64,000 bases of DNA from a virus (IMGVR_UViG_3300033121_002356:60722-124721), one strand, 5' to 3'. Counted from the first letter of the stretch, positions 33,001-61,350 are shown. A program made the numbers and translations. Notes: generated from the sequence alone by a model not told the origin.

Positions 33001-36000
33001 AAGTTCTTTATTTTCGTATTGACCTAAATTTCCAGACTTAGCAGCAGCTCCTACCTCTTCTAATGATTTAGTATCAGGAGATATGCCGGCCTTCGTAAAA
33101 TCTCTAATTATATTTTGTACAAGTAATTTACTTTTAACAGCATTCTGCCCTGCGGAAGAGAAGTCCGAGACAAGTGCCTTAGTTTCATTAAAAGTATCAA
33201 CTAAAGATGTAATACCACCGCCCCCTTGAACTTGTCGCTCAAACGGAGATAGATTAATTCTTCTAGTTCCTAAATCAATAGGGGGCCTATTACGACCACC
33301 CGTCAAGTAATTTCGCTCATCAAATTCTTTAAACTGTAATAACTCTCTTCTTTCTCTTATTGAATCAGCTACATTATTTAATACATCCCCGAGACTTTGT
33401 ATTTCTTGAGAAAACGTTATTATAGCAGAATTATTAGCGAGAGTCTCTTGTAGGTCTGTAACTGCTTTTCTAGAAGCACCAGATATCTTAACTAAATTGT
33501 CTACCTCTTCAGAGTCAAATTGAGAATTTCTACCTCCTTCTTTTGTTAGACCAAGAGCCTCTTTTCTACTTTTAAGGGTTTCCTGCTGTTTCCTAACTAT
33601 ATCTAAGAAATTTTCTCTTTTACCCCCGGCATCTTCTCCTCTGATGTTTATTAGATTATTACCAAAAGTTCTATAAAGTCTTAATTGAGGTTCAAGCTCT
33701 TTTTCAAGTCTAGCTCCTGTATTAATATCTCCTGGAAATGAAATACCAAATCCTGCACCAGTTGAAATTCTTCTCGCCTCTTTAACCGCAGCCTCGAATA
33801 ATGTCTCTGTGTCTCTTGCCACATTAGAAAACATCATTACAAATTTAGATTGTGCATTATCAGCAACAGAAGACATGGCCTCATTAAATTGGTCCGTAGT
33901 AAAACTCTTTATCTCATTATCATTTCCTAGTGTTTGGAATCTATCCCCAATATATACAGCAAATTTAGCAGCTACTCTAAGTTTATCAGCTATCTCATCA
34001 CTAAATGTAATAACGTCTCTATTAGAGGGGGCTGCTCTGCCTTCAGAAATACCTTTAGGAGTTAGTCCCGCTTCCATATATTTCTCGGCTATGCCTCTTC
34101 CTGAAGTAGTTCCCCTTGTAGGTATACCAAATTGAGAAAATACCAAAGCAGCTAAATTCTCTTTGGCTCGTGTATCTACCGCGTTTATTTTATCGTATGC
34201 AGAACCAGTTAAAGCCCCTTCTTTTGCAAGCTCTCTTCTAGAGAACTCTGTCAAAGCATTTTTATTAGCATCTGAGGAAAGTTTTGTAAGAACATCAGAT
34301 GGAGCTAAATTCTTGGAAGCAGGAATTAAATTCTCATAAATTCTATTAAGAATAGTATCAACATCTGTTTGAGCTTCAGCTATTTTTGTCTGAAGTTCTC
34401 TCATTTCTGGGTCAACAGACTTATCTCCAGTTTTTCTCTTGTCCGTCAATACTTCCATTCTATTTGTATAATAATTTAAAGCATTTATAGGCTTAGTATC
34501 TATTTGTTTTTCTAGGTATCTCCCGCCCGCCCCGAAATGAGAAAGTAATTCTTTAAATCTTTGTCGCATAATATCCCAATTATTTGAAAGATTTCCTAGG
34601 TCATTTGCGAAGCCTTCCGCTATTTTAATTTTTGAAAAAGCAATAGCGGTATCCGAGAGAGACTTTACAAGGTCTAACTGGATGGATAATAAATTATTTG
34701 TTTTTAATATTGCATTTCCCTGCTTATCGTAACTATCTACTAAGTCTAGATTTATTCTTGCTACTTCATTTATAATTGATTGCTGCTCAATTAAAGCCTT
34801 CTTTCGTATAGCCAGTGGGGATTCAAAAGTACCTTCACTGATTTTACTCAAAGCCTCAGCAGTGCCTTCAGGTCCCGCCTTCTCAAGATTATAAGATTTT
34901 AAGAAAGCTTGACCAGTTTTAGCTAATCTAGCAGAGGCAGAAGCAGAACGAGATGAAGTATCCTCTTCCTTAAAGATAGAAAGATTTAATTTCTTTTCTG
35001 TACTTTCCCCTGTTAACCCAATCTTAAGTTTAGAATCTAATAAAGAGTCTATGTCATCTTTTAGATTTGAAAATGTCTTTTTAGCAGCATCACCAACGTC
35101 AGTAAATAGAAGGGCTAATGCAGCTACAGTGCCTCCTAGAAGCTTAGTATTAGAAGTTAACATAGGTATAACTTTTTCTAACCCAGTAGCAAGGCCTATT
35201 TTTAAATTAGAAAATAACTTTAAAGGACTAGCACCGCCTAGTAAATCTCCTGTCATCCCTTTAATTTCTTGTATCTTACCAAGAACAATTAACAAGGATG
35301 CAGCAGCCGCGGTGGCTATCTTAACAGAATTTGGTATCTCTGTAAAAATATGCACCATACCAGTCATAGTTGCTACAACAGCCTTGGCTACAGGAAGAAG
35401 AACATCACCAAATTTTATAGCAAGAGCGTCCGTTGATGCCTTTAATACTTCTACTTTCTTTGCATATGACTCCATAACCAATTGATTTTCTCTCATGGCG
35501 GAACCCTGAGAATTAGCGCTTATAGTAGTTGCACTTAAAGCAGTATCAAAGTTATGTAAAATTACCGCAAAGTCATTATAACGTCTAGTTCCTACTGTAG
35601 CTTCAACCACATTTAGCTTTTGTTCTGCTGAAAGAGAGTCAAAAACAGTAGATAAGTCTTTCAAAATATCTGTAGCAGTACGTAATCCTTTTGCGTCGAC
35701 TACTGGTATACCTATCTCAGCTAGTGCCTGTCTTGATTTCGGTCGATATAGAGACCTCAACATATAGTTTAACGAAGTACCAGTTTCTCGACCTGTTTTT
35801 CTAGTTACTTCTACTAATGCAGTAGTTAATCCCAAGAATTCATCAAAGCTAACACCAGCTACCTTAGCAGAAGCACCAGCTCTTAATAGAGAGTCTCCTA
35901 GGTCCGTCTCTGTAACTGCAAATCTATTAGCCACTTCATTCAATGAATCTAAGAATCTTAATGCATCTCCTCCTTCTTCGGGGAATTGTTTTAATGCTGA

Positions 36001-39000
36001 CGTAAGTATTTCTGTCGCTTTCTCCGGCTTCATACCTTCTGTTACGTTTCCTGCCAATACCGAAGTACGACCACGTTCTAACACTTCTGATTGCCCAAGG
36101 CCCTGCTTAGCAAATACAACGAAAGAATCTAATACAGTATTTACTGATGTACCAAACTCTTTAGCAAATCCAACAGCACTATCTCTTAGTTTTCCAAAAT
36201 CAGTAGTAGCCGGGTTCATAACCTTCTGAAGTTCTATCATATTAACTTCAGTTTGCTTTATAACTTGAGCCATACTTCCTATAGCTCTAATTAACCCATA
36301 GACAACTCCAGACGCTGTGCCCCATAAAGCTACCCGCTTAAAGGCATTTGAAAGGGTTTGGTTAGAGGAAGGAGCATTATTCTCAACTTTCTCACTTATA
36401 TCTCTAAATGATAACTCTGGGTCAGGCCCCCTTGGTCTAATAATAGTATTTCTTGTTTGTATTATTCTTCCAGATGAGTCAGTAATTTTCTGATTCTGTC
36501 CTATTGAAGTACCAGGCTCAAAAGCGTGTAAAGAATCAGCATAATGCTCTCTTATTCCAGGAAATTTTTTTCCAAGATAATCTGAAGCATATACTCGTAA
36601 TCGCAATCTCCCTAGATTTTCACGCTGAAGTTTTTCCTGAAAACCAGGAGCCAACATAGCCATATTTTCATGGGGTATTTCATCCGGTAAATTTAACAAC
36701 ATTTCTCTTATTTCAGTACGCCCTACACGCCCTTTGTATCCTTTACCAAATAAATATTCTCCTGGATTAAACTTAGGGTTTCTCTTCTGCATTGCAGCGA
36801 CTTCTTTCATAAACCCACTAGCTACAATATCAGCATGCTCTTCGGACATTACTAAAGAGCCCATTGAGGATTTTTCAACACCGGCATACAATTTCTTTAA
36901 TGTTGCTTCAATTAATGTCTGGTCTCTTCGTTCTTTCTCACTAGTTTTACCTGCCTTCATTCTAGTGTCAAATATGCCTCTTGTAGTTGCAATAGTATCT
37001 CTGAGATAATCAGAGAAAAATGGTCTATTAGAAGGGTCTAATAATGGAGTTAGTATTTCGTTTAATCTAACAGAAGGAGGAGCGTCCGACATAATAGTAC
37101 CTGCCCCTATCTGGGCAGCTCTTAATACAACAGCATTATTAGGCTCTCTTGAGGCCTCATCTCGCTTAGCACGGTTAAAGGCATCTGTAAATCCAGGAAT
37201 ATCAGCAATTCCTTCTTCGAGGCCAATATACCCTCCTTCTAGGCCGCGACCTCGACCGCGTGGAGCATATGGGAAAGACTGACGTGTAGCAAACTTACGC
37301 CCCATATGTTCACCTATGGACCTAGTTAATCTTTCGTAATCACGTTCGACACTTTCAACTTGGCTTGTCCATGTAGTATCCCTTTCCTTAATGGGCTTAG
37401 CTTGTAACTCTTGAGCAACTTTTTGTGTCTTCTCTAAGTTAGCAGTATCGCTTTGATAGGCTAAATCATAATATTCAGCCCAAAATGATGTCGGATTAAT
37501 TTTACTTAATGCACTTCCTTCTTTTCCTCCAGCAATTCTATCGCCTATATCCATGGCTTTTTTCAAAGATTTGTGCAGCTCTTCCCTACCAACTACTCCT
37601 GTTTGGGCTTTTTTAGCCGTTTCATGTAACTCGCCTAATGCAGCTAGAAGCTCCTTTTTAGTATCCTCAGAAGGAGTTAAACCGGCACGAGCACCAGAAA
37701 GGAGCTTAAACAAAGCGCTATTCTCATCAAACCCTTTCGTCTCAGAGAAATCAAAATACGTTGGAACTGGGCCGAATTTTTCTCCAAAAGTTGTACGAAA
37801 TAAACCATGTTTCTGTCTAAGCGTTTTTATTACAGGGCTATTTACTATTTTTTCTAAGGAGTCTTCATGAGAAATCTTTTTTCTATCTTGTACTTCAACA
37901 GGTACAGTACCATGTCTAGCTGCTGCCTCTTCTGGAGTGGCATTTTGCTCAAATATGCCACCAATAAAATCAAACAAACCAGGGTCGAAGTCAGAATCAC
38001 CACCACCACTGCCCCCGGTAAGCCTCAAAACATCTGCACTTGGACTTGAGAAGGGGGTCTCAATTCTAGCCCGCTCTCTTTCATCCTTTAATGTAGCTAA
38101 TCTAGACTCAAGAGTAGCATAACTATTAGCTGCTCTCCTGTCTCTACTGAATCGCTCTCTACGGGTTAGTATAGAGGGTCTTCTAAAATATTTATCTCTT
38201 TTAGCTATGTCTTTATCTATTTCTGAAGGCAATCTAGTAGCGCTAGCACTTACACCGGAACCTCTACCCACACTTATAGAAACAATACCGTCTTCCTCTG
38301 TCCGGCTAAAAGTATGTCCGTACCGCTCTGCTTGTTTTTCAATCATTTCAAGCCATCTTAGATGTTTCTTTGTACCTACTGTCTGAAACTCTAGCCCTTC
38401 TCTTTGAGACTGAGGAGTTCCTAGGCCTTCAATAAGACCCATTACTCTGCGTAGTTTACCCTGATTACTAGTATATGCTCTATTCTTATCATTTTTGTCT
38501 AATTCCTTTCCGCGCGCTCCCGCACCACTAAGTTCTCCCAATCTCATAGTAAACGTACCGCTTCCTGAGAGTGCCTTTTCAATTGATGGAAGTCTTCTAG
38601 CCGTATATCCAGCGCTACTAGCCGAAGGAGCAGAAACGAGAAGTGACTCTAATTCAGCATCAGACATGCTTGCTAGAGCTTCTTTAGAAATACCCAGTCT
38701 CGTACTAATTGGGTATTCAGATGAGCCCCTCTTACCAGAGGAAAATTTAGCGTAATCAGAATCAGGCGCCGATGGGCTTGCGGCTCTCTGAGCCATTTTT
38801 TGCAAGCTTGCAAGTATTCTAGGGTCATTAAAGTTTCTTAAAGGACCTAGATTAGGGGCAGAAACACCTATAGAGGTACGTACCATAACCCCTACAAGTA
38901 ATTCTTCTAATGCAGTCATTAAAACGTTTTTATAAACACTGGCTACTTTTTCTTCCGCTACATTTGTGTCTAATGGAACAACTTTACCCTCAGAAGCAAA

Positions 39001-42000
39001 TTGACTAACCCCTTCTAAAAGAGCTTTATTCATTTTAGTTCGACCAACATCCCCTTCCTCAAACCCTAATTCACTTTGTACCCGAGGAGAAATAGCGTTT
39101 GTGCTAATAACTTTTCTTGCTTGGTCTGTTAGTAATCCGAGCATGCCTTTGTCCTTATCTTCAAGAACTCTATCTAACATACTAGAACCTAGCTGCCCTT
39201 CCCCGTACCCACCCCCAAAGGACTTACTTAAAGCTAAATGCCCTCCTTCATGAGCAAGAGTAGAAACTAGTTTCATTTTCTCCTCATCGTCCATATCGTC
39301 AATCTTACCCAACAACTTTGACGGGTCAAACTTACCATAAGTAACGAGTTTATTTCCTCTTAAAGCTTCTGCAATAGTCGGAAATGCCTTTTCATTAAGC
39401 TTTGGAACTCCGCCAGCGAATTGCCCATATATATCAGTATTTTCTTCAGAAAAAAGATACCTATTTGGGTCTTCAACAGCTTTAGCCCCATATGCACGAA
39501 GAATCTTATGCATATTCATATATTGCTGTATTTTTAGGTCGTTATCGCTCCCGGAAATACCGGAATGAGCCAAAAATTCCATACCACCTTGTGTTAAATC
39601 AGGAGTAAAAACTCCAAGACGTCTGTAACTTCCTACTTCTCTTCCATATCCCCCCTCTTGCCTCCCACGAGCAGTACTAAGTCCTACGTTACTAATATCT
39701 CCTTCAGAAAGTCTCTGTAATGCTCTTTCAATAAATTGTTGCCATTTAATAATATTTGCTTCCAATTCAGCCTTATAGGCTTCAAATTTATCATCTGTTA
39801 CAACTACAGACTGAGCCGGTAAATCAAGAGGAGCTATGCCCAAAGCAAGTTCTCGATTTCCTTTTACATAGTCCTTTATTCCAGCAATTAATCGGTCAGG
39901 TTTAAATAGGTCTTTATCTTCCTGGTTTGCTGGCCGGTCTTGCCCCTCATCTCTGGGGCGCATAGATTCTACCTGACTTCTAACAGCAGTATCTATTTCC
40001 TCATCGGATTTTCCTTTCAACCTTTTCTTTAATTCATAAAGAGCTAGACCATATGGCATAAGCTGGTTTCTAAATTTGTTGTTCTTACCACTTAATAAAG
40101 CAGCTGGGTCAGCCTCTCCTTTAAGTTCTTTACTAGTTTTTACATCATATAGCCCTAGTAAATTCATTCCTGTTGCTGGGCTTACCTCAGTAGTCATGAT
40201 GTCTGCTTTACCACCTATACTATATGGAACTGACCCCGCCGCCACGCCCCCAGTCTTAAGAGATAGTTCGCTTCCAATGGCTTCCTCTGCTAACTTTCGT
40301 CTATCCTCAGTCTCTATGCTTTTATCATACATAGTTTCAGCCATGTGGTGTAATTCCACAGTACCTTTCTGTGGATGCTCGCTTTCTATAGATTCTCTAA
40401 GAACTGCAAGGCCTCTGGCTCTGGCTTTCTCAAGATTTTCTCTATCACCCTTAAACTCAGCAGCAAATGCAACATATGCTCGACCGACAGCAGTTCCTAG
40501 TATAGCTGGGTCAGACTTTTCTGGTTCAAACCCAAGACTTTCACGAACCTTAGCAGGTATCCCCTTTTTATCTACACCAAGAATCCCTTTTGACGACCTA
40601 AAAGTACTTAAACTAAGATTATCTCCTGCGGCTGCGGCTGTAGCAACCATAGAAGGTGACAAATACATTTTACCTCTATTACTTCCCTTTTCTACCAAAG
40701 ACTTAAAAAAATCTTCAACTTCTTTCTCTTCTGGTACTATGCCTAAAGTATTAAGAGCGTCTATAGAGGCTCTATCAAAATTACTAAACTTTCTAGAGCC
40801 AGCCCCGGATACTTCCGCCTTCTCATAATCATACCCACCACGAGCGCGCTGTCTATTAGTAGCTTCGACCAAACGCACAAGAGTATGCTGAGATTCAGTA
40901 AGTATCTGTAGCATTTTTGACTGCAATTCGACTAGCGCCTTAAACTGTGCATCACTCATTAATCCGCTGCTAGACCCGCCGCCAGTAACAGCTACACTAG
41001 AAGCACCCGGAATAGAAGGACCACCAGTAGAAGCCGCCTTTATTGCCTCTGCTTTCTTTATCTCTTCTGTATCTGTGTCGGTAACTCCTCCTGCCTGAGA
41101 CATAAGACGCATAAGCTGAAGACTATTAGCTCCCCCTTTCCCAAGAGCATCTAACTCTTTAATTTTTTCTAGTCTTACCGCATTATATACAGTTCCAATT
41201 CTTAATTTAGACCTGCTAATAGCTCTTTCATTATTTTTTCTTTCTTCTTCCACCCATTCTTGTGGTTCATGCCCCTCAGGTACATCATCTAATGTACCTA
41301 TTAAACTTCTTTTCTTTAAAAGTAACTGTAAATGCTTTTTCTCTCTAATTAATCGTCTATTTCTATCTTTTTTAAATTCAGTTTGTAGTTCTTTATAAGA
41401 AGTGGTTACATCCGTATCGCCACTAAAATTTTCCAAACCTTCATTAGGAAGAGAATCTAGCCCCAAAAACTCATTATCGGACATATCGAATTTAGAAAGT
41501 AATGCGTCTTTATGTTCCTGAAGAGCACTACTAGCCTTAACGCTTCGAATAAACTTTTCTCTAGCAAAAAAGGTTGGCTGACTTAATGTTCCAAGATTAG
41601 ATTTTGACGGCAATTGCACCCTCTGGAACATTAAAGCAATTTCTTTATCTAATTCCTTAACGGATTCGGGAGGCTCAATTTCTACTTCCTCCCCCTCTTT
41701 TGACCCCGACAATAATCCATAGGCTTCTGCATGTTTATCCTGTCTACTAAGTACCCTTTTACGTAAAGAAGATACTTTATCATCATACTCACTTAAATAC
41801 TTTTCTGCTTCTTTATGACTTAATTGAACCGCACCTGTATCAGCAGTAACAAAATCTGGATTGATAGCTCTAACTATACTCTTTAAGAAGCTTGCAGTAA
41901 CACCGCCACTAAGTGCTGCTTTTCCTGCGCTCTCTTCATCCCCGCCAATGTACCCCAGCATTTCTCTTAATCGGTCAATGCCCTTATTAGCAAACTGTCT

Positions 42001-45000
42001 AACGGGCGCAACAGTCTCAAATACCCTCGGTCCTTTTATTCTTACGGCGGCGGCAACTATTTCACGTATACTAGCAGTACTAAGGTCATGAATACCCCCT
42101 ACGTCTAGCTTAGAAAATTTAGAAGCCATACCAGGTAAATCTGGCTTAAAGTCCTTTAAGAACCCAAAAACTTTAGCTATTTGTTCTAGTATCTCTCCTC
42201 TGGCTTCTCTCTCTGTTTTACCTCCTCTTCTTAACTGCCACTCTCTACTTTGCATCTTATCAGAAACAGAAGAAATTGTATTTCTTTCTAAAGTACTTCT
42301 CATAAGTTTAACAATCTCTCTAGGAGAATATTCTGAAGACATGGTATCAATAATACCGGCACCAGTTATACCGCTCTTTCCCGCAAATATTCCTTCATTC
42401 TTTTTAGCGTCTTCTATTCCTTGTTCAATTTGTTTTGCAGAGTATTCTTTAAAACCTCCGCCCGCATCCCTAAGATTTACTGTGGAACCAGGAGCCATCT
42501 CCTCTCGTATTCTTGCAAAAGCCAACAGTCTTTGTTGTAACTTTTCTGGAGTTAGTTTACTTAACTCTGATATTCTAGCAGCTTTATTTGCTCTAGCCGG
42601 TTCATTTAACGATTCGAACCCTCCGCCCTCTTTAATAGAACTCATAAAATCATTAAACGACATCTCTCCACCAGAATCTTCACTGTGCGCTGGTGCATTT
42701 AATGCATTAAGAAGTTTCAATGCAACTGGTATATTACCAAACTTTGTCGAAAGGGCCTCTTGAATAACACCGGCAGAAGAATGCTGAAATGCACCTTCCC
42801 TTGTTTTAAACTCATCCGATAGCGCTTCTTGCTCTTTACTATCAATACCTATTGAATGTCTTTTACTTATGTTAGCTAAAGCTCTCTTGTTTTCAGCTTC
42901 AAGTAAACGCACTACTGTATTAGTACTTTCAGTAACAGCACCGGTTAGTAACTTAGGACCAGCTAGTTTTAGTATTGTACTTTTAGCCTCTAATTGGTCA
43001 ACAGCCTCAGAAGCCATCGCATCAAGATTCTTTTGTGTTTCTTCACCTTCTAATGAGCCAAGAACTATTGGGCGCGACGGAAGAGATACCCCTACTTTTT
43101 CTAAAGAGCTTCTTAAAGCTTTTTCCCCTATAGCCATTCTCCCTTCTTGACCATATTCCGTAGGAGCCTCGCCGTCACCACCACGTATTTTAATAAACTG
43201 TTTAAAAGCATCAGATACTGCTAGTTTTGCTTCTGGTCCTCTAAGATTGCCCATAAGTCCATAAGATGGTGCTTGTATTTCATCTTCTTTCCCTGTTCTA
43301 CCAGAAAAGAATCCAGGAAGCTGCTCATTCATAAATAAGCTATCTATAGTATCTAAAATATCTATACCTCCAGCGTTTGCACTAGAAGTATTACTTGTAC
43401 GTATCTTTGGGCCTTTTCCTGACATCTGTTGGTCCTGTAACTCCGACATAAAATCAGTTACAAGAACTGGTTTGCCATTAACCATCTCGTACCCTTTAGC
43501 TAATTTTGTTACAGACCGAACAAGTTCTTTTTGGGCATCCGTACCGGCCATAAGAGAAATAAAGAATTTATCCCCGTCGAAGTCAGCTGCCATACTCATA
43601 GAATGGAAAGTATTTGTCAATGCTTGTATAGCTTTACTTAAAGCCGTATATCTAAGATTAAGGTCTTTTAATTTATCTTTATCTACATCAGTCAAACTTC
43701 CAATTGGCATTGACAATAATTTACTACGTTGTTCAGATATTTCATCTCTAGCGGTTACCAATTTTCCGCCAACTGCGCGGCCGCCTTTAAATTGTATTAA
43801 TGCAGGGTCTAAGGCTGCTTCTTGAGAAGCCTTAGAAAGACCTCCAGCTATTCTAAGAGAAAACTTATTATCGTCTTCATTATGAGTTTTTAATATTCTA
43901 CCTTGAAAAGATTTAAAGTCAGTAATGGGGAATCTTGTTACAAAGGAGCCTATGCCTTCCGTTTTAGCCTGAGCCAAGAGTTTATCTCTTGTATCTTCAT
44001 CTGTATAGCCGGATGAGACCATATTATTAAGCAACTCTTTTAAACGGTCCTCGTGCATTTCTACTGTTTCTAATGAAGTAGTCTTTACTTTTTTAGACTC
44101 CTCCATAAGCTTCTCTAAATGTGGGCCAAAAGACGCAAAATCTGACATATCACTACCAGCTAGCTTTTCACTTAAGTCCCTCACACTCTTCAGCTGGTCA
44201 GATATATCAACTTGTCTATTAGTAATAGGAAGCATCATAGTTGGATATCTTAACTCAGAAGTTCCTGTATGAAATATAGACCCTTTACCGAACACTTGTT
44301 GTTGAGAAGCATCCATAAGGCCTTTTATACCATATTGTACTTGAGAGGCTACTTCTGGATTTGTCTCTTCCCCCGGTCTAAACCCAAGTCCTTTAAATCC
44401 AAGTCTATTAGATGAGTCAGAAAATATAGTGGCCAATTGCTCATATTGAGCGCTCGCCTGGGCACGGGTATCGTCATTACTATAAAGTCTAGAAATTTCT
44501 GAAAATACCGATGGATGCCCTACTGAGCCTCCTTCATGCGGGTCACGATAACGGTAGCCACGTATAAAATAGTTTTCTAATTCACTTACTTTATGAATTA
44601 ACATATTTTTACGAACGGCAGGGGTGGGTGCCTCTGAAATATTAGTACCAATTATGTCTTTAAGAGCGGTTTTATTTCTTTCTCCTATAGAAGCCTTAGC
44701 TACTCTATCTATTTCATCCGATATTTCCTGAGCTTTCTTAGGGTCTTCTTTAGCCTCCTCTATAAGGTCCTTAAGTTTGCTTCCATAGGAAGAGACACCA
44801 GCCTGTAAAGCTGTCTTTGGAAATAATTCCCCTGTATTATATTCTTGGAGAGAACTAACAACACTAGTAATTGCTCTTCCTAATTGGTCTTGCCCGACAC
44901 TTCCAGTATTGGTCTGGAAAGTACCTCTGGCTGCTGCTGAAGGTATAACTACATACTCAGGTAATTGTGATTCGCTCCCTCTTCTTAGCGCCGCTGGTAT

Positions 45001-48000
45001 GGGAATTTTTAATGTTTCTGGGTATTTACTAGTATCATGTACAGAACCAATCAAATCATAAGCAGAAGAAAATGAATCAGGGCTCAACCTCTTAAAGTCA
45101 TTAACATTTACTTCTCTAGCACTACTGACAACGGCTTCTCTATATTTATCTAATTGGGGACTAGTTCTAGCCATCTCAGCATCCATTGCTACCATAACCT
45201 TAAACATTTCATAGAAACGTAAGGATACCCCTTCCGATGCTTTAGATAGCTCTTTGAATATAGCTGAATTTTCTCCAAATGAGGTCTTAAATGCAGCTAA
45301 TGTATTTGGATTAAACTTCAAAAACTTATCACTTTCAACTCCTTCTTGTGGACGTAGATTGGCGAACTCCGTAACTGGTACTTTAGCTATTAATGATTTA
45401 TGTCTACCATCAGTACGTCCAGGACCTCCTATCGCTTCTGATAATATAGGAAGATTATCCCCCTCAGCATGGAACCCTATTCCTTTACCATATTTTCCAA
45501 TTACTCTTCTAAGTAGCGCAGGGTCTTCATTACCAATAACTAAAGGGGTCTCCCCAGTAATAGCAGTAGCAGCCGCTGCAACCATTTCAGCTCGTAATCC
45601 TCGACGAGCAACAGCTGCTTCACTAGTAACCATATCTATTGGACGCTTGGTATAAAGGGCCTCTTCATTATCCTCGCCAGCTACTTCTTTTACCTTTTTT
45701 CTAAAGTCTTCAATAGATTTAATCTCTTGTCCAAATACAAGATTTATAGCAGCCTTAGTCTCTTTTATTTTTTGTATTAATTCTTCTGTATTTAATGCCT
45801 TTGTTTTTCGTCCTTCTTCACGATATTGTGGCAAAGTCATTTCCATTTCTTTTATATCATTCTCATCCCAATACAAAAGATTTCCCAAACCTCTAGCGCC
45901 AGCTCTAGCAGTTTTAAGAGCTGCTCTATCCATGTTTGGTAATTTTTTATTATGTCCTAAATACTGAAGAGACTGAAAGGGGGTTTTCGGTAATAATTGT
46001 GAGCCTAAATCATCCTTAAAAACTACGACACCTTTATCTCCTGTTTGAAGAGATACTTTCTTTCCTTGCTGTGAATGGAATAAATCTAATATCTGTAAAA
46101 CAGTAGCCTCATCTACAGTAGACCCTTGCTTAACTCTTGATTCTATTATATCTAATATTTGAGAAGCAGCCTCCTTCTTATCTATAGTAAAAGCAGCGGA
46201 CCCCATACTAGATGTAACCGCTTGTCCTGTTCTATAAACTCTTCTTAAGGCATCTTCTCTATTTATTATTTTACCGTCACTACCAACAAATTGTTCATTT
46301 ATATCTCTAATCAAAGAATGAACACCGCCAGTAACACTTCTTGCTAATCTTGACCCTCTACGAAGAAGTTTCTGGTCTTCAAACGTTTCTGGGGTAGTTC
46401 TAAACTCTGTTACAGTATTGTACGCTGAAGGCCCTATCAAACCCATATCAATAGCCTGTTGCCCCTCTACCGTCCTAAGATAAGGCAAATCAGGCCCAAT
46501 ACCACTTAATGGCTGCTCACTTCGTCTTGTTATAACTGTTGGTCTTGCGTACGGAATTAAATCTCTAACACTGCCTCTAACTCTTTTAACGGATATTTCA
46601 TTTCCGTTACGACCTTCCGATATTTTAGCGGCTACTTCTTCACTTAATGAACGTCCTGATACATTTCGTATACCTTCTAAATTTTCGTTGGTAGCCCCAA
46701 ATGCTAGTACATCATTTAACTCTCTTAATACGTCTTCTATTTCAGTTTGTACACTAAATCCATGCTCAAATAGACCATAACTATTTCTACCGCCGCCTCT
46801 ACTAACTCGTCCTATATCGGCACTTGTAGTTATATGAACCTGTTGGAGTGCTCTTTTATTTTGATTCGCTCTTCTTAGTCTAGCTCGACGCGGGTCACCA
46901 CTAGAAGCAATTATTTGCTCTTCAAACGGCTCGACATCCTCTAAAAGAGCTGTGATAGGTCTGGAAAAATTTGATTGTGCCTTAGGTATATTTTGTGGAC
47001 GATTTCTTAATTCTACAAGATTCAAGAGAGCCCTGGCTATGGGGGTAGACATATCAGTACCTCTTGCTGCCTTCTTCCCATCGTCTGTTGTAAGAACATC
47101 TACCATTTTATCTGCTATATTCTGCCCCTTAGCAACAGATAAATGTCTTACTATCGCTGTTCCAGTTATTCCTAATTCTCTAGAAAGACTAAGTAATTGT
47201 TCTAGCCCCATATTAGAATTATTAAGATTAGCTAAAACGGTATTGGCTGCCTCTTTAGCCGCAGCTTGCTGGGCTCTACTTATTCTTGTAATATCCCCAG
47301 CTTGAGTTTCAGAATAACCAGTTCTAGCTGCTACTGCTCTGGCTTTTCTTTCAATTGCCTCCAACGCACCCGGGGTGCGTCCTGCGGGAAGTAGTTTAGC
47401 TATCTCCGCATCACGAACTCTCTTAAATACATTTTCTTTTGCAGACTCCGCAGCAGTGGCCTGACCTGCCCTATATGCAATTGCTTGCTTTAGTGCTTTT
47501 TCTATTTCTCCTTTAGCAAACTCCCCGTGTTCACCGGAATTAAGTCTTTTAAATAACTCTTCGAACTCGGGTTCTAATACCTGCCCTTTTAAAATAGATG
47601 TTTTAATCCTCTCAGAATCCCTTCCCATTGTTCTTACAGCCAAAGGTCTTTCCTTACTGTATGCGCCCATATTAGAAATTGCTGAAACAAGTCTATCTAT
47701 ACCAGTTCGTAGTTCTACGAACTCAACTGGATTACTTCTAATAGGTCCCTTTTGTCCAGTATACACCAACTGTGCCCCTCTATCAGAGGCCGCTAAAGTA
47801 GGAACAGGAAAAGATACTACAGCACTTTCTACTTCTTTCTTAAATGTACCTTTTAATTGTTTTTTTAAATCTCCAAGAGCCCTTGCTATTTCAAACTCAG
47901 TGTCTAATTCTCTAGTTCCTAAATGCTTTGTAACTACCTTACGTAATTGTTCTACATTTAGTGTTCTAAACTCTAGCCCTCCAAAATCTCCCGAAGGTGT

Positions 48001-53912: not shown

Positions 53913-54622
53913 TTCTGCATCATACCCTTAAGTTGGTCTATTATAAACTCTGATACGCCGCTGTTTTGAAGCCTACTATAAACACGTTGAATATAGCTAC
54001 CACTAACCTCTATATTACCAGCTACGTATTCAGGTGAATGTATTAAGTCCCACCCATCTTGAAAAAAGAAATCTGGCTCAGCTAGAATAGCACCAGAAAA
54101 TTTAAATAGTTTTCCTTCAGTGAGTAATGATAATGATTCAGCAGAAACGCCATAATAAGTATTTAATCTTTCGACAAAATGGTCTCGTTCTTCTGAAGAT
54201 ATTACATTATTTTGAACTAAATCCTCTAAAAATTTAGGAGTTATTTGCCCCTTATCTATAAGAATATATTTTCTACGTATACCATTTAAATACGCAGACA
54301 CCCATCTAAAATCACCAAGACTAAATTCCTCGGAATAATCTGTATTGTACATACCAAACTGTTGGTCATTAAGTAGTCCTATTTCTATACCGCTTGTAGA
54401 AATAGAAACACCCTCTTCGTATGAATTTAAAACAACATTCTGATACGAAGTTAATATATCTTCATAACTTATTGGGGTATTACTATTATTTCTTATATTT
54501 GAGTAATCTATGGCAATAGGTCTAAATTCTTCAACTAAAATATTAACTATAGGTCCTTTTAAAGGAACCCTAGCTATATAATTTAGCTTGTCCATAAATT
54601 CTCTAACTAAAGTACTCATCAA
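53909..54622 (-). CDS. Putative neck / tail completion protein
   Basis: Position between head-closure-like and terminator genes only. Confidence 0.45.
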   Translation of the reverse strand: MMSTLVREFMDKLNYIARVPLKGPIVNILVEEFRPIAIDYSNIRNNSNTPISYEDILTSYQNVVLNSYEEGVSISTSGIEIGLLNDQQFGMYNTDYSEEFSLGDFRWVSAYLNGIRRKYILIDKGQITPKFLEDLVQNNVISSEERDHFVERLNTYYGVSAESLSLLTEGKLFKFSGAILAEPDFFFQDGWDLIHSPEYVAGNIEVSGSYIQRVYSRLQNSGVSEFIIDQLKGMMQK

Positions 54623-56262
54623 CCAGCCTTTGCGTCAGTAGCAACTTGTACAAACCAACAAATCACTAATGCATTCATGCCTATCCCATCATAAAGGGGA
54701 GGCTTTATTTTTTCATATCGAACATCATTAATAGTTATATATAAGCAATTTAATAATATATCAAAATTTTGTTCACTGGTTTTTAAAATAATATATGACT
54801 TTCCATCTTTACCATATGGGGTAGGTTCATAAACAGCATCAGCTGAATACAATTCTTCCGGAAAAAAATCTATTAATGCCTTTATAACTGTAGTAGAAGT
54901 TGCTTCTAGTTTTCCATTACCCCAACATACAGGACAAACATACGAATTAAAATCTTGGGGGGTTATCGTTACTTCAGAAGAAGTCCCGGAAAATAATACT
55001 ACAGGAGCAACAAAATTAATGTTAAAAACACCAGAAGATTTTCCACTACTTATATCAAAAAGACAATTGTTAACGGATATGCCACTTGCTATATAGCTAT
55101 GCACATGTTCAACTTCAAAATTAAATACCGTTGTTTTTTTATTTTCAACTAAAACCGAAGATACAACTGTATAATATTTATCATCTGTTAATACCGCTCC
55201 TCTTTTTTCTTTGCTTTCCCAATATCTTATAAAATAAGAATTTTTTCTAAATATACCATCTTTTCTAGTCCCTTCTTTGTTTAAAGAGATAGTAGCATAG
55301 TAACCACAGGACAATAAAAGGCTATATAATTGATAAGCTAGCTTTTCTGATATAGTAGAAGCCACCCTAGCACCCAAATTTAACTCTCTATGCCCATCAC
55401 CAAAGTAATACCCATCTAATAGTATTTTAGTCTGTCTTTTACTAAGTTTACCATATAATTCTCTAGGTATAATTTTGTTTTCTGCTAAATGCCCGCAAAA
55501 TGAATCCAAAAATTTTGCCAGATATACACTATATAGCTCAAATACAGCATTTTTAGAGTTAGGTCTTGAACAGAGGGACCAATTAATATTAAGTAATTCT
55601 TTCCAATAATTAGAAACCTTAGTACCAACCTCTATCTCTTCATTATTTAAGCAATATTGAATTTGTCTATTCTTAGAGGTGCATCCTTCTGCGATAAAAA
55701 GACCAATGGCGAACAAAAAGTCATCTGTGACTTCAATTTGTTTCGGTAACAAAGAATTTCGTAGTACGTATTTACTTACATACCAATCAGGAGTAATATA
55801 CAAAAGGTCTTGTTCTGGTAACTTCAATAATCCTTTAAATAAAATATCCCCAGGCTTAATCTCTTTAATTTCTTTTTCAACTAATTCTCCTAATATGGGG
55901 GAATATTTATTACCTTTATTTGTATAAGTAGGAATTCTATGAGACTCTGTAGCAGTTATTCCTATATTATTTCCATGAGTTTTTAACGTAATAAAATTAC
56001 AATCTACTTCTTTAAATAATATATTTGAAATCCTCCGTATATCTCCATTGCCATCTAATACCTCATCTCCTATATTTAAATTATCAATATATTCCATACC
56101 ATATGGTACCTCTATAAGAGTACCAGCTTCAAAGCAATTCGGGCAGGAAACAATAGTGGAAGGGTTATATACAACTACAGCGTCAGATAAATCTAAAATT
56201 ACCTGATTCATTACTTTTTTATATTCTTTTTGAATACTTTTAGGTATTAAAGAACCAGGCAT
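54619..56262 (-). CDS. Putative head-closure/neck protein with CxxC...CxxCxGxG zinc finger, interrupted by an intein
   Basis: The spliced extein (190 aa) reads 'IVSCPN|CLFD...YVCPVCWGNG'. It follows the adaptor gene. Confidence 0.65.
   Translation of the reverse strand: MPGSLIPKSIQKEYKKVMNQVILDLSDAVVVYNPSTIVSCPNCFEAGTLIEVPYGMEYIDNLNIGDEVLDGNGDIRRISNILFKEVDCNFITLKTHGNNIGITATESHRIPTYTNKGNKYSPILGELVEKEIKEIKPGDILFKGLLKLPEQDLLYITPDWYVSKYVLRNSLLPKQIEVTDDFLFAIGLFIAEGCTSKNRQIQYCLNNEEIEVGTKVSNYWKELLNINWSLCSRPNSKNAVFELYSVYLAKFLDSFCGHLAENKIIPRELYGKLSKRQTKILLDGYYFGDGHRELNLGARVASTISEKLAYQLYSLLLSCGYYATISLNKEGTRKDGIFRKNSYFIRYWESKEKRGAVLTDDKYYTVVSSVLVENKKTTVFNFEVEHVHSYIASGISVNNCLFDISSGKSSGVFNINFVAPVVLFSGTSSEVTITPQDFNSYVCPVCWGNGKLEATSTTVIKALIDFFPEELYSADAVYEPTPYGKDGKSYIILKTSEQNFDILLNCLYITINDVRYEKIKPPLYDGIGMNALVICWFVQVATDAKAG
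55066..56136 (-). mobile_element. Intein with LAGLIDADG homing endonuclease (357 aa)
   Basis: Block A 'CFEAGTLI'; block B 'ITATESHRI'; endonuclease motifs 'IGLFIAEG' and 'LDGYYFGDG'; blocks F/G 'VFNFEVEHVHSYIASGISVNN|C'. Confidence 0.95.
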
Positions 56263-57450: not shown

Positions 57451-60400
57451 CTATAAAGGATTACTGAATACTCCCTGATTTATAATATTATTATCTCTTA
57501 CCCCATCGCAATCATCATCTAAACCATTACTAATTTCCCTAGCTCCTGGATGAACAGAAGCACGAGTATCGTCACAGTCTGTTTCGGGGTGAGTACAACC
57601 AGCTGAACCTGGGTTTCCGTATCCATCCCCATCGCTGTCCACGCAATCAGCTTGTATAGTCCAGTTATTATTATTTCCTGAATCTAGACTTGTTGATGCT
57701 GTGCGTGCTGATGCATTTGAGTTATTTGAATCTTTAATGTCTACATATGAAACACTAGGGATGCTTTGAGGATTTATATTCCACCTAGTAGGGGTAGCAG
57801 AACTTCTAAGTACAATTTTACTTCCGGAAGTACCTGTTAACGTAAGAACACCTGATATTGTCTGCGTAGAGCCAGCTGTGAAAGTAAGGGCTTTTCCCGC
57901 TGTAGTACAGGTTAGTGTGGTAAAAGTGGTGTTTCCTGTAAATAAACTAGTACCAGAACCATTGAATGTTACTAATCCTGAATTAGTAAAGGTGCCGTTA
58001 TTAGTCCAATTTCCACCAACCACAATGTTTTGGGAATTTTGAACTAAAGTAGTACCAGAAGCAATAGAAACGTCGCCGCTCAATGTAAGAGTATTGCCAA
58101 GAGAGACTTTCCCAGACCCACTCAGGGTGAGCGTGTTTATGGTCAGAGCCCCGCTGAGAGTTCGTGTATAAGCGGTAGAAACCGATGTGTGACTGTTATT
58201 GTTTACAGCCACATCTCCGTAGGTAGCCGCTGCTGCTTTGGTATAGATGGTTCCCGCCGCTGCATATGTTCCATCGTAAATACTTCCTCCATAGGCTGTG
58301 ACAGAACCATTATGAGTCCTGGTAGTATAGGTAAGGGAAATCTTGCCTCCACCACCACCACGACCTGAAGAGTTTCCACCATTACCCCCATTAGCAGTAA
58401 TTGAACCAGCTCCAGCTAGGGTACCAGCATTTATCCAAATACTACCTCCTGCTCCAGCTCCTGCATCAACTCCTCCTCCATTGCTACCATTTGCAACAAT
58501 GTTTCCAGTAACCGTTAAAGTCCCAGTTACATCAAGTCGAATGGTACCTCCGCCATACCCACCATTGGAACCGGAGCCACTTCCAGCACCCGAACCAGCA
58601 GTAACAGGTGAAGTTATGGAACCAATTCCAGAAAGGCCACCACCAGAACCATTCCCCTTGGCACCGTCACCACCATTTCCTCCTCCGGAGGGGGAACAAC
58701 ACCCCGTTCCATCTCCAGTTGCTGGCCCCTGACCTGTCACAAATCCGAGACCGGTAACAGTAACAGAACCAGAAGAAATATTCATGTCTCCAGAAACAGT
58801 GAAGTACACGGCTCTGGCTGCGGTTGTTCCAGTTCCATTGGGCTCCTGGGTATGATTTACCGTTCCTCCAGAAATTGTCAAGTTTCCAGGAATAGAAAGT
58901 CCAGTATTGTTTGCGAAAGAAAAAATTCCACCAGTAGATATAGTTAAATTAGTTAATCCAGAAAAAGCCCCGTTATATGTATAAGTACTAGAAGATAGAG
59001 TTGTGGAAGAGGCAACCGTATGAGTTCCTAAGTTGGTTATGTTAGGGGCTCCGGTCAGAGAGGAAATTGCTGAGGTATCAAGAATTCCTCCACTGTTGAT
59101 AGTCAAAGTTGCGTCGGATGTACCATTAGTAAATGCAGTGGCAACGGTCAGAGTCTTTCCAGAGGTAATTAAAAGTTGAGCGTAATTTTTAACTGTTACG
59201 TTTGCGAATGTCTCACTCGCTGGTATTCGGGTATACCAGGTAGTCGTTGGTGTTGTACTATTGGTTCCATTATCAACAGTTAGGTCACCATAAGTTGCAG
59301 AGGATGCCTTTGTGTAAATAGTTCCAGCCGCACTTACATATATGCGACCGTTGTAAGAACCCGTAGTGGTTCCATAGGCAGAAACAGTCCCGTTGTGAGT
59401 TCTCGTTGTATAGGTTAGAGAAATCTTGCCTCCTCCTCCAGCACCACCACCATAGCTTGCTGTTCCACCACCATTTGCCCTGATAGTACCAGAACCAGCC
59501 AGGGTTCCTGCATTTATCCAAATGCTTCCTCCTGCACCTTCACCACAATCACCTGTCTGCCCGTTGGAAGAGATGGTACCGGTTACTGTCAAAGTTCCAG
59601 TAACATCCAGCCTAACGGTTCCTCCACCTGAACATCCATTATTTCCTCCAGACCCGGCGGTTACTGGAGCTGAGATGGAACCAAAGCCAGAAGTTCCTGG
59701 GGTATACCCGTTGTAGTAATTATTTTGAGTACCATCCCCTCCGTTAGCACCACCAGCATAATACCCAGGAGCAGTTCCTGGACCTTGTGCATAAGCGAAT
59801 CCTAAGCTATCCACAGTAATAGAACCAGAAGAGATATTCATATCTCCAGCTACTGCAAAGTAAACAGAACGAGCAGCCGTTGTTCCAGAACCATTGGGTT
59901 CCTGGGTATGATTTACCGTAGCTCCAGAGATAGTTAGATTTCCAGGAATTGACAAGCCAGTATTTGAAGTGAATGTGAAGATTCCACCGGATAAGGTTAA
60001 ATTGGTTAATCCAGAAAAGGAACCTCCGTTATAGAGATAAGTATTAGACGCTAGAGTGGTAGAAGAATTTATAGTATGGGTTCCTGCATTGGTTATGTTT
60101 GGAGAACCAGATAGGGACGAAACAGCAGATGTGTCAAGTGTTCCACCACTATTTATGTATAAAGTTGAATTGGATGTCCCACCCGAAAACCCAGAGGCAC
60201 TCGTAAGTGTCACACCAGACTGAATTAGTACTTGAGCATAGTTTTTTATTGTAATGGTTGCAAAAGTATCACTTGCCGGAATTCTTGTGTACTTAGGACT
60301 TGGGTAAGATACCGTACTACTTGACCCATTGTCTATAAGAAGGTCTCCATATGTGGCGGCAGAAGCTTTGGTATAGATAGTTCCTGGGGCAGAAGTGCTT

Positions 60401-61350
60401 ACATATGCATTATATGCTCCCCCCGTGAACCCATAAGCTGTAACAGTGCCGTTATGTGTCCTGGTTGTATAGGTAAGAGAAATTTTTCCTCCACCCCCTG
60501 GATTGCCTGAAGTATTATTTCCACCATTAGCCCGGATGGTTCCAGACCCGGCCAAGGTCCCTGCACTTAACCAAATACTTCCTCCTGCTCCTTCGCTACA
60601 TACACAAGCTGCCCCATTCGCACTAATGATTCCTGTCACAGTAAGAGTTCCGGATACGTTCAATCGAACGACTCCACCTCCAGCGGCATCTTGCCCTCCG
60701 GAACCAGCGGTTACGGGAGCAGAAATAGAACCAAATCCAGAGTAAGCATATGCAGAATGGTAGTATGCCCCATTTGCTCCATCTCCGCCATTTGCTCCTC
60801 CGGCATCTCCTCCCGTATTATTTTTTCCAGGACCCTGGTTGGCAGGAAATCCGAGAGAATCTACTGTTATTGAGCCAGCTGAATAATTTAGATTACCAGT
60901 TATATTGAATGAGACTGCTCTTACTGCTGTAGTCCCAGAACCATTAGGCTCTTGAGTTTGGGTAACTGTACCACCAGAAATAGTGCTATCGGCTCCAGCC
61001 GTAATAATTGGGGAACCCGTATTAAAGGTCATCGTTCCACTGGCCTGATTATATGCTCCAGTTAGATTAAGAGAATTATTCAGTGTTATCGCTTGAGCAC
61101 CAGCATTTATAGAAAATGAAGCAAACGTTGTTGCAGAAGAAATATCCCACGTACACGCTTTAGTTGACGTAGCATCAAAAACAATAGCGTCGCCAGCAAT
61201 CGGTGCAACATCGGTATCCCAATTACCCGCCGTAGACGCTAAGTTGCCGGAGCCGCCACCGTCCCACGTTGCGGTTCTAGCTAAGGCCAAAGAAGGGCTG
61301 CCTATAAGTACTAACAATAAAAGAGTTTGAAATAAATATTTTATTTTCAA
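57451..61350 (-). CDS. Secreted-type Gly/Thr-rich repeat protein with N-terminal signal peptide and C-terminal MopE-like putative metal-binding motif
   Basis: N-terminus 'MKIKYLFQTLLLLVLIGSPSLALA|R'; three ~350-aa repeats with 'GAGGSIWI'; C-terminal 'DSDGDGYG...DCDD....HPGA.E..NGLDDDCDG'. Confidence 0.75.
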   Translation of the reverse strand: MKIKYLFQTLLLLVLIGSPSLALARTATWDGGGSGNLASTAGNWDTDVAPIAGDAIVFDATSTKACTWDISSATTFASFSINAGAQAITLNNSLNLTGAYNQASGTMTFNTGSPIITAGADSTISGGTVTQTQEPNGSGTTAVRAVSFNITGNLNYSAGSITVDSLGFPANQGPGKNNTGGDAGGANGGDGANGAYYHSAYAYSGFGSISAPVTAGSGGQDAAGGGVVRLNVSGTLTVTGIISANGAACVCSEGAGGSIWLSAGTLAGSGTIRANGGNNTSGNPGGGGKISLTYTTRTHNGTVTAYGFTGGAYNAYVSTSAPGTIYTKASAATYGDLLIDNGSSSTVSYPSPKYTRIPASDTFATITIKNYAQVLIQSGVTLTSASGFSGGTSNSTLYINSGGTLDTSAVSSLSGSPNITNAGTHTINSSTTLASNTYLYNGGSFSGLTNLTLSGGIFTFTSNTGLSIPGNLTISGATVNHTQEPNGSGTTAARSVYFAVAGDMNISSGSITVDSLGFAYAQGPGTAPGYYAGGANGGDGTQNNYYNGYTPGTSGFGSISAPVTAGSGGNNGCSGGGTVRLDVTGTLTVTGTISSNGQTGDCGEGAGGSIWINAGTLAGSGTIRANGGGTASYGGGAGGGGKISLTYTTRTHNGTVSAYGTTTGSYNGRIYVSAAGTIYTKASSATYGDLTVDNGTNSTTPTTTWYTRIPASETFANVTVKNYAQLLITSGKTLTVATAFTNGTSDATLTINSGGILDTSAISSLTGAPNITNLGTHTVASSTTLSSSTYTYNGAFSGLTNLTISTGGIFSFANNTGLSIPGNLTISGGTVNHTQEPNGTGTTAARAVYFTVSGDMNISSGSVTVTGLGFVTGQGPATGDGTGCCSPSGGGNGGDGAKGNGSGGGLSGIGSITSPVTAGSGAGSGSGSNGGYGGGTIRLDVTGTLTVTGNIVANGSNGGGVDAGAGAGGSIWINAGTLAGAGSITANGGNGGNSSGRGGGGGKISLTYTTRTHNGSVTAYGGSIYDGTYAAAGTIYTKAAAATYGDVAVNNNSHTSVSTAYTRTLSGALTINTLTLSGSGKVSLGNTLTLSGDVSIASGTTLVQNSQNIVVGGNWTNNGTFTNSGLVTFNGSGTSLFTGNTTFTTLTCTTAGKALTFTAGSTQTISGVLTLTGTSGSKIVLRSSATPTRWNINPQSIPSVSYVDIKDSNNSNASARTASTSLDSGNNNNWTIQADCVDSDGDGYGNPGSAGCTHPETDCDDTRASVHPGAREISNGLDDDCDGVRDNNIINQGVFSNPL
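58180..61020 (-). repeat. Three tandem diverged ~1050-bp coding repeats
   Basis: 'QEPNG' anchor at about 60941, 59891 and 58835 (periods 1050 and 1056 nt). Confidence 0.9.

Follow-up and report, generated by a model that had tools for sequence, protein, structure and literature searches.

A giant tape measure protein of 7,339 amino acids (aa) is encoded in a stretch of 64,000 nucleotides of viral DNA, IMGVR_UViG_3300033121_002356:60722-124721 (this whole stretch is called the window here, and positions are counted from its first letter). Upstream of its tape-measure domain this protein holds a divergent, single-chain module that resembles the core of cellular RNA polymerases. The reading of residues 844-2181 as an RNA polymerase, with a candidate two-barrel fold, is supported by sequence motifs and by profile comparisons. 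With such a polymerase core carried by its tape measure, the phage probably delivers a transcription enzyme of its own via the tail, as was described in 2024 for Thermus phage P23-45, though the present lineage is another one and far more widespread. We consider it likely that the module is an active RNA polymerase delivered in this way. An earlier note on this DNA had called the segment 42440-46970 (residues 689-2199, which covers the module) a complete two-barrel RNA polymerase. The signature motifs and the profile homology stand, but "complete" is not established, because neither a bridge helix nor a trigger loop was detected.

Motifs and profile homology

The open reading frame (ORF) of 7,339 codons is an intact, genuine tape measure protein. 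Its start codon is TTG, and GGGGG stands 8 nt upstream of it. The genes of the window all share one direction, and a public protein collection already contains an identical product. Pfam finds PF10145 (PhageMin_Tail) in it at E 1e-28, and PHROG tape-measure families match it at E values down to 4e-82. The polymerase-like module and PF10145 are parts of one polypeptide, the module being the N-terminal of the two. Directly after the tape-measure domain come hydrophobic, membrane-like segments (Kyte-Doolittle window of 19, score above 1.6). In the first 2,500 residues, neither Pfam nor PHROGs gives any match.

The earlier note had listed seven motifs in the order known from cellular enzymes, and all seven are located where it put them, from FED (885-887) to D1818/D1820/D1822. 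It had also described the three catalytic aspartates as intact; indeed they are present, and they are invariant in 73 of 73 aligned sequences. From the protein's own composition one would expect DFDGD 0.004 times and G.K.....G.KGV 0.001 times, and the ordered set FED..GxKx5GxKG..D[FY]DGD appeared in none of 20,000 shuffles; the motif set is more than chance.

A profile of the family to which this protein belongs (see below) was aligned by HHalign with profiles of 31 beta-prime and 31 beta sequences, in E. coli numbering. On the beta-prime side, the five best local alignments are collinear and each falls on a classical motif: DFDGD..H..EA on residues 459-482 (E 1.3e-4), RYPF on NRAP at 421-456 (E 0.047), YVPGxxAR on PVLPPDLR (E 0.057), GKxGs..FF.R on GKQGRFRQNLLGKR (E 0.14) and a segment ending in IFGE on the beta-prime N-terminal motif, which ends in IFGP (E 0.36). 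The three best alignments with the beta core are likewise collinear and centred on classical motifs, namely TFEDQ on NFEDS at 811-815 (E 0.0013), FGRKxTTRYGSKGV on GDKMAGRHGNKGV at 1063-1075 (E 0.012) and PIDxRISSxGxAKR on PVDIVLNPLGVPSR (E 0.22). All seven pairings proposed in the earlier note were recovered independently in this comparison. The lower-ranked matches are individually weak; their weight lies in their order and identity. In the reversed-profile controls no collinearity was seen, and the best E values were 0.14-0.34 (the reversed beta-prime control gave one match, at 0.34). For calibration, the same comparison with the family of gp96 of Thermus phage P23-45, which is experimentally active, gave E values of 0.0038 (beta-prime) and 0.59 (beta).

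Compared with E. coli RpoB and RpoC (PF00562, PF00623), the module has motifs of the same identity in the same order: E813/D814, K1065/K1073 and PVD..SR of beta, then IFGP, PPDLR, GKQGRFRQ, NRAP and NADFDGD of beta-prime. It differs from cellular beta and beta-prime in being a single chain, in having no Zn-binding cysteines (there are no cysteines at all), in large helical insertions inside both candidate barrels, and in lying below all curated Pfam thresholds.

A Pfam scan in which the DFDGD segment of each of the 73 family members was taken singly has PF00623 (RNA_pol_Rpb1_2) as its commonest match, in 45 members at E<=10 and in 24 at E<=0.05, the best value being 0.0016. Next in frequency comes coiled-coil noise (6-11 members), and no family of RNA-dependent RNA polymerases (RdRP) or of DNA polymerase D (PolD) is among the matches listed. 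The PF00623 matches of the relatives presumably fall short of the 25.3-bit cut-off. With the beta-like segment of the same 73 members, Pfam found no RNA polymerase family, and PF00562 was not detected.

Table 1. Features of the giant tape measure protein and their positions in the window
Feature	Residues	Window position	Strand	Basis
Giant tape measure protein, single ORF	7,339 aa	27016-49035	minus	uninterrupted frame
RNA-polymerase-like module	844-2181	42493..46506	minus	collinear span of the family profile built without the window protein
Beta-like part, candidate double-psi beta-barrel DPBB-B, with helical insertion at ~1017-1127	848-1177	45505..46494	minus	HHalign against beta core
FEDQ (compare E. 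coli beta N-F-E813-D814-S)	885-888	46372..46383	minus	invariant in 73/73; HHalign to beta 811-815
GKKVSLQTGDKGV; K993/K1001 paired with beta K1065/K1073	991-1003	46027..46065	minus	HHalign to beta GDKMAGRHGNKGV, 1063-1075
PIDMVTSEAAVARR, then RGL 1145-1147	1132-1145	45601..45642	minus	third collinear HHalign match, to beta TPVDIVLNPLGVPSR, E 0.22
Beta-prime-like part, N-terminal motif equivalents and candidate DPBB-A	1217-1907	43315..45387	minus	five collinear HHalign matches, beta-prime 24-482
KFLKFNPNTLAAFKTSFGENS (compare beta-prime N-terminal segment, E. coli 24-64, ...IFGP)	1237-1257	45265..45327	minus	fifth collinear HHalign match; F1253, G1254 invariant
VVIPSAAAR (compare beta-prime PVLPPDLR, 243-250)	1362-1370	44926..44952	minus	P1365, R1370 invariant; HHalign E 0.057
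GKGSIFHTGTSELR (compare beta-prime GKQGRFRQNLLGKR, 333-346)	1583-1596	44248..44289	minus	G1583 invariant; HHalign E 0.14
TRFP (compare beta-prime NRAP, 424-427)	1700-1703	43927..43938	minus	R1701, P1703 invariant; HHalign E 0.047
AADFDGDKFF, candidate Mg-binding triad D1818/D1820/D1822	1816-1825	43561..43590	minus	HHalign to beta-prime 459-482, E 1.3e-4
K2028-x3-G2032-x3-E2036, downstream of DFDGD	2028-2036	42928..42954	minus	invariant in 73/73
Tape-measure domain PF10145	4291-4481	35593..36165	minus	Pfam and PHROG; 39-44% identical to the family's giant proteins
Hydrophobic, membrane-like segments directly after the tape-measure domain	4537-4588	35272..35427	minus	Kyte-Doolittle >1.6

A family of giant fusion proteins

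By itself the module region is a near-orphan. When 1.8 billion cluster representatives were scanned in full with HMMER, three weak matches came up besides the window protein itself, and no closer relative of the window protein was found among these representatives or among the 5.8 billion sequences of the length class searched. The best of the weak matches, P0002, has far better conserved motifs: TFEDQILISGRL, FGRKFATRFGTKGVSV, RYPFTGT and QKLDFDGDALFIH. Searching outward from P0002 led to 16 proteins, of which some have a tape-measure annotation (PF10145) and many a DEDDh exonuclease (PF00929), to 45 IMG/VR loci and to 78 metagenome loci. The family is found at more than 120 loci. Among 185,579 prokaryote species, represented by one genome each, there were two matches only, both on short contigs of metagenome-assembled genomes (MAGs), which gave no host assignment. 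A tblastn search with the module as query found no match in 50,697 phage records, and a feature search of the ESM Atlas gave nothing better than an uninformative score of 0.77.

Where a locus is long enough to show it, the polymerase-like region in most cases shares one ORF with the tape-measure domain. Four full open frames, found among five large viral records, measure 7,488-7,674 aa and belong to phage genomes of 150-269 kb. In a few loci the polymerase and tape-measure parts are separate adjacent genes, and fused and split forms coexist among the relatives. At L004:10001-29924 (also in L098) a polymerase-bearing protein of 3,307 aa adjoins a separate tape-measure protein of at least 4,044 aa, and in L027 and L105 the polymerase region itself is divided over two ORFs. 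The genes upstream have similar sizes and the same order in the window and in the relatives.

A family hidden Markov model (HMM), built from 35 relatives with the window protein left out, finds the window protein at E 7e-38, with five collinear domains over residues 844-2181, and the tape-measure domains of the relatives are 39-44% identical to that of the window protein (E 1e-66 to 2e-87; about 1e-70 to 1e-90 in the loci that have both parts in one ORF). This places the window protein, as a divergent member, in a large family of polymerase-tape-measure fusions. By BLASTP, the window module matches relatives at E values down to 2e-22, and one high-scoring segment pair covers residues 844-1847. 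The giant proteins of this family (for example P0002, P0014, P0016; loci L003-L127) have the same architecture, size and catalytic residues as the window protein. The latter, 18-22% identical to each relative, is more divergent than any other member seen. The distance from FED to DFDGD is 933 aa in the window protein versus 950-1,180 aa in the family, and the spacer between polymerase and tape-measure domain is ~2,470 aa versus ~1,400-1,900 aa. The window protein also has no detectable PF00929 domain in its first 840 residues, whereas many members have the DEDDh exonuclease. In P0002, P0006-P0009 and P0011, this 3'-5' exonuclease lies upstream of the polymerase module, in the N-terminal region at about aa 200-430.

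When residues 848-2047 of the window protein are aligned, as first row, with the family (73 sequences in all), only 32 columns are invariant. These include FEDQ 885-888, K993, G999, K1001 and G1002 (the last four within GKKVSLQTGDKGV), R1145-G1146-L1147, P1365, R1370, G1583, R1701, P1703, D1818, D1820, G1821 and D1822. The RGL residues that follow PIDMVTSEAAVARR are invariant; the HHalign value of that motif, E 0.22, is weak on its own. At positions conserved in >=90% of the relatives, the identity of the window protein is 43%, versus ~20% overall, which indicates continued constraint.

Relatives also have a candidate second gene of this kind. Two stand-alone ORFs of 1,109 and 1,158 aa, L200 (G033:C1:43506-46613) and L132 (G002:C9:5797-8988), come from a complete 268.8-kb relative and from one MAG. 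They carry ERFP, 36 residues and then DFDGD (DHDGD in L132). The homology between the two is strong (E 5e-228), and their match to the HMM of the tape-measure-fused family is weak and collinear. For the MAG copy, PF00623 gives E 2.4e-4. In our opinion these ORFs are candidates for a non-virion RNA polymerase, and the presence of a separate paralogue of ~1,100 aa in the relatives suggests a programme of two polymerases, first the virion enzyme and then the non-virion one.

Evidence against an active polymerase, and other readings

Several results weigh against reading the module as an active RNA polymerase. The window protein's own sequence matches no Pfam RNA polymerase model, and PF00940, PF00623 and PF00562 find nothing in the phage's own genome record. 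Among the PDB sequences HMMER finds no polymerase; even gp96 is missed, although its entries 8H2M and 8H2N are in the library. With the region and two family profiles as queries, phmmer and hmmsearch returned coiled-coil noise only from the PDB sequences. In beta-prime 480-1000, no HHalign match that would correspond to a bridge helix or trigger loop rises above the reversed control. A bridge-helix role is possible for the conserved K2028/G2032/E2036 element. In the phage's 124.7-kb record, which is ~44% complete, no second polymerase was found.

Structure prediction yielded no evidence on the fold. AlphaFold2 modelled residues 831-2000 from a 19-sequence alignment with a predicted local distance difference test score (pLDDT) of 44, and residues 848-2047 from the 73-sequence alignment with a pLDDT of 57.5 and a predicted template modelling score of 0.43, every motif being below pLDDT 50. 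In both models the motifs lie in helix or coil of low confidence, and the matches that Foldseek and VIA-align find for them are helical only, that is, noise. The earlier note had expected two double-psi barrels from AlphaFold and Foldseek; the two low-confidence models neither show nor refute such barrels. The confident parts of the models are helical hairpins, one between short strands near residues 1012-1016 and 1128-1132 and another between RFP and DFDGD, and we infer that these are lineage-specific insertions within the two candidate barrels. The spacing from P1703 to DFDGD in the window protein is 114 aa because of such a helical insertion (modelled at pLDDT 85-92).

It could be argued from these results that there is no polymerase homology, and that the motifs are a chance or convergent resemblance in a mostly helical extension of the tape measure. 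The AlphaFold2 model is indeed nearly all helical, it places DFDGD in a helix at pLDDT <50, and no match to any RNA polymerase family exceeds a curated threshold. However, the ordered motif set is absent from all 20,000 shuffles, and it is exactly the motif residues that are invariant. Moreover, PF00623 matches 24 of the 73 relatives at E<=0.05, and the eight collinear HHalign matches on classical motifs have no counterpart in the reversed controls. We regard a chance or convergent resemblance as very improbable.

The divergence of the window protein raises a different doubt. Of the 55 residues that are invariant in its relatives it has retained 32 and lost 23, among them the Arg at the position of beta R1069 (Q997 here), the His after DFDGD (S1827 here) and the prolines of VPGxP; therefore a reduced or altered activity is possible. 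Taken further, the same losses may be read as those of a catalytically weakened or dead relic, which is retained for its bulk or as a structural component of the tape measure or of the ejection apparatus. The window protein is an outlier with respect to all relatives (18-22% identical), and no closer homologue was found among the 1.8 billion cluster representatives. Yet none of the residues known to act directly in catalysis in cellular enzymes is lost: the Asp triad, both Lys, the FED pair and RxP are all present. The active gp96 likewise has no His after DFDGD (DFDGDTLVVL), and the 43% identity at highly conserved positions, against ~20% overall, indicates continued constraint. In our opinion, a relic is unlikely.

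A genuine two-barrel polymerase may, on the other hand, have another job than transcription: it may pull DNA as a motor, make primers for replication, or copy RNA in the manner of QDE-1. The template and product of a two-barrel polymerase are not readable from its motifs, and the superfamily takes in RNA-dependent enzymes (QDE-1) as well as DNA polymerase D. Many family members have the DEDDh 3'-5' exonuclease (PF00929) N-terminal to the module, a domain that is unusual for a transcriptase, but the window protein itself is without a detectable PF00929 domain. Against such roles, the motif set and the Pfam matches indicate beta-prime (PF00623), with no RdRP or PolD family among the matches listed, and the sole characterised tape-measure-fused example transcribes pre-early genes (PMC10770324). 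We give these other functions a small chance only; the module is more probably a tail-delivered, active RNA polymerase.

Known polymerases and a proposed mechanism

The precedent that the earlier note had named, a virion RNA polymerase fused to the tape measure of P23-45, is real (PMC10770324). In gp96, a tape measure of 5,002 aa whose DFDGD stands at 779-783, the N-terminal ~1,100 residues form an active two-barrel polymerase, virion-borne and without a clamp, which transcribes pre-early genes, among them the gene for a second, non-virion polymerase, gp64; structures of gp96 are available (PDB 8H2M, 8H2N), and counterparts occur in Thermus phages P74-26, G20c and TSP4 (PMC10770324). Within the library that could be searched, we found no other literature on tape-measure-polymerase fusions.

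The window protein and gp96 have much in common. In both, a DFDGD triad of the two-barrel type stands in a tape-measure polypeptide, upstream of the tape-measure and membrane segments, with the beta-like before the beta-prime-like barrel (candidate barrels in the window protein), and both are giants (7,339 and 5,002 aa). Neither contains a single cysteine. As P23-45 has gp64, so the relatives of the window protein have a separate candidate second polymerase. There are also differences. The gp96 module is N-terminal, whereas that of the window protein is internal (aa 844-2181). The latter keeps more motifs of the cellular type than gp96, namely FEDQ, GxKx5GxKGV, GKxG and the beta-prime N-terminal motif. 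The window protein belongs to uncultured mesophilic phages of 150-270 kb, gp96 to Thermus phages. Beyond DFDGD no similarity to gp96 was found: HHalign against a three-sequence gp96 profile matches DFDGD only (E 0.11), and tblastn of gp96 finds Thermus phages only. An HHalign alignment with the single gp96 sequence was discarded as spurious.

The published survey of such enzymes used the filter [RK]xPx{20,100}DxDxD (PMC10770324 Supplementary Data 4). In the present family the spacing from [RK]xP to DxDxD is 113-114 aa, outside the range of 20-100, and the survey may have missed the family because of this. Whether a beta/beta-prime polymerase of the cellular type was fused to the tail tape measure a second time, independently of P23-45, in the lineage of the window protein and its relatives (more than 120, from metagenomes), with the window's copy as a deep orphan branch, is in our judgement an even question.

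Single-chain two-barrel polymerases, as proposed for the window module, are also found in other phages, in gp66 of phi14:2, a crAss-like phage, and in YonO of a Bacillus prophage; gp66 is virion-borne and injected (structure 6VR4), as cited in PMC10770324. Unlike the window protein, neither is fused to a tape measure. HMMER against the PDB sequences gave no RNA polymerase of any kind, with no direct profile comparison with gp66 or YonO having been made.

By analogy with gp96 of P23-45, we propose the following sequence of events. The module at residues ~844-2181, a single chain with its beta-like part followed by its beta-prime-like part, would be packed inside the tail as part of the tape measure protein and would leave the virion together with it at infection. 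D1818/D1820/D1822, with Mg2+, would then act with E886/D887 and K993/K1001 to catalyse DNA-templated RNA synthesis on the entering genome, so that the first phage genes would be expressed without host RNA polymerase. Possibly, transcription would be coupled to DNA entry via the tape-measure pore. The amino acid composition is also of interest in this respect. The 7,339-residue protein has 0 cysteines, versus ~10 per 1,000 aa in other long ORFs of the same genome, and the median in relatives longer than 3,000 aa is 0 per 1,000. The absence of cysteine fits a protein that travels in an extended form through the tail and the cell envelope, and it may be an adaptation to extended-state transit through tail and periplasm.

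Some further features of the window deserve mention. Elsewhere in the 7,339-residue protein, Pfam supports no nuclease or protease domain at E<=0.1. An HExxH-like sequence, HEGGH, lies at aa 3262-3266 (39238-39252), between the polymerase module and the tape-measure domain, without a Pfam match at E<=0.1; gp96 of P23-45 has a metallopeptidase domain. A RecB-like nuclease had been suggested at 40020-40670, where there is no Pfam match at E<=0.1 either. Among the neighbouring genes, all on the minus strand, an ORF of 547 aa (54619-56262) has signatures of inteins, of Hint domains and of LAGLIDADG homing endonucleases (PF14890, PF13403, PF14528), and, at its C-terminal end, faintly matches a terminase PHROG; this is probably a structural or packaging gene with an intein. 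The ORF of 1,299 aa at 57451-61350 ends with a MopE-type metal-binding motif (PF11617), and that of 846 aa at 61367-63907 has a C-terminal tail-fibre-like domain according to PHROG.

So far, virion RNA polymerases fused to a tape measure have been documented in a single small group of Thermus phages. Should the module described here be active, the strategy would be widespread in uncultured phages of 150-270 kb, with an enzyme that has kept more of the cellular beta/beta-prime signatures and that standard annotation calls "tape measure protein" only. If, further, the family is indeed an independent second fusion, large uncultured phages would commonly infect by means of tail-delivered transcription, with a separate non-virion polymerase taking over afterwards, and the strategy would not be an oddity of thermophiles. 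As cysteine-free, single-chain polymerases of the cellular type, the members of this family would offer a system for studying how a polymerase of ~1,300 residues is packed in, and threaded through, a tail tube, and a route to studying the possible coupling of transcription to genome entry.

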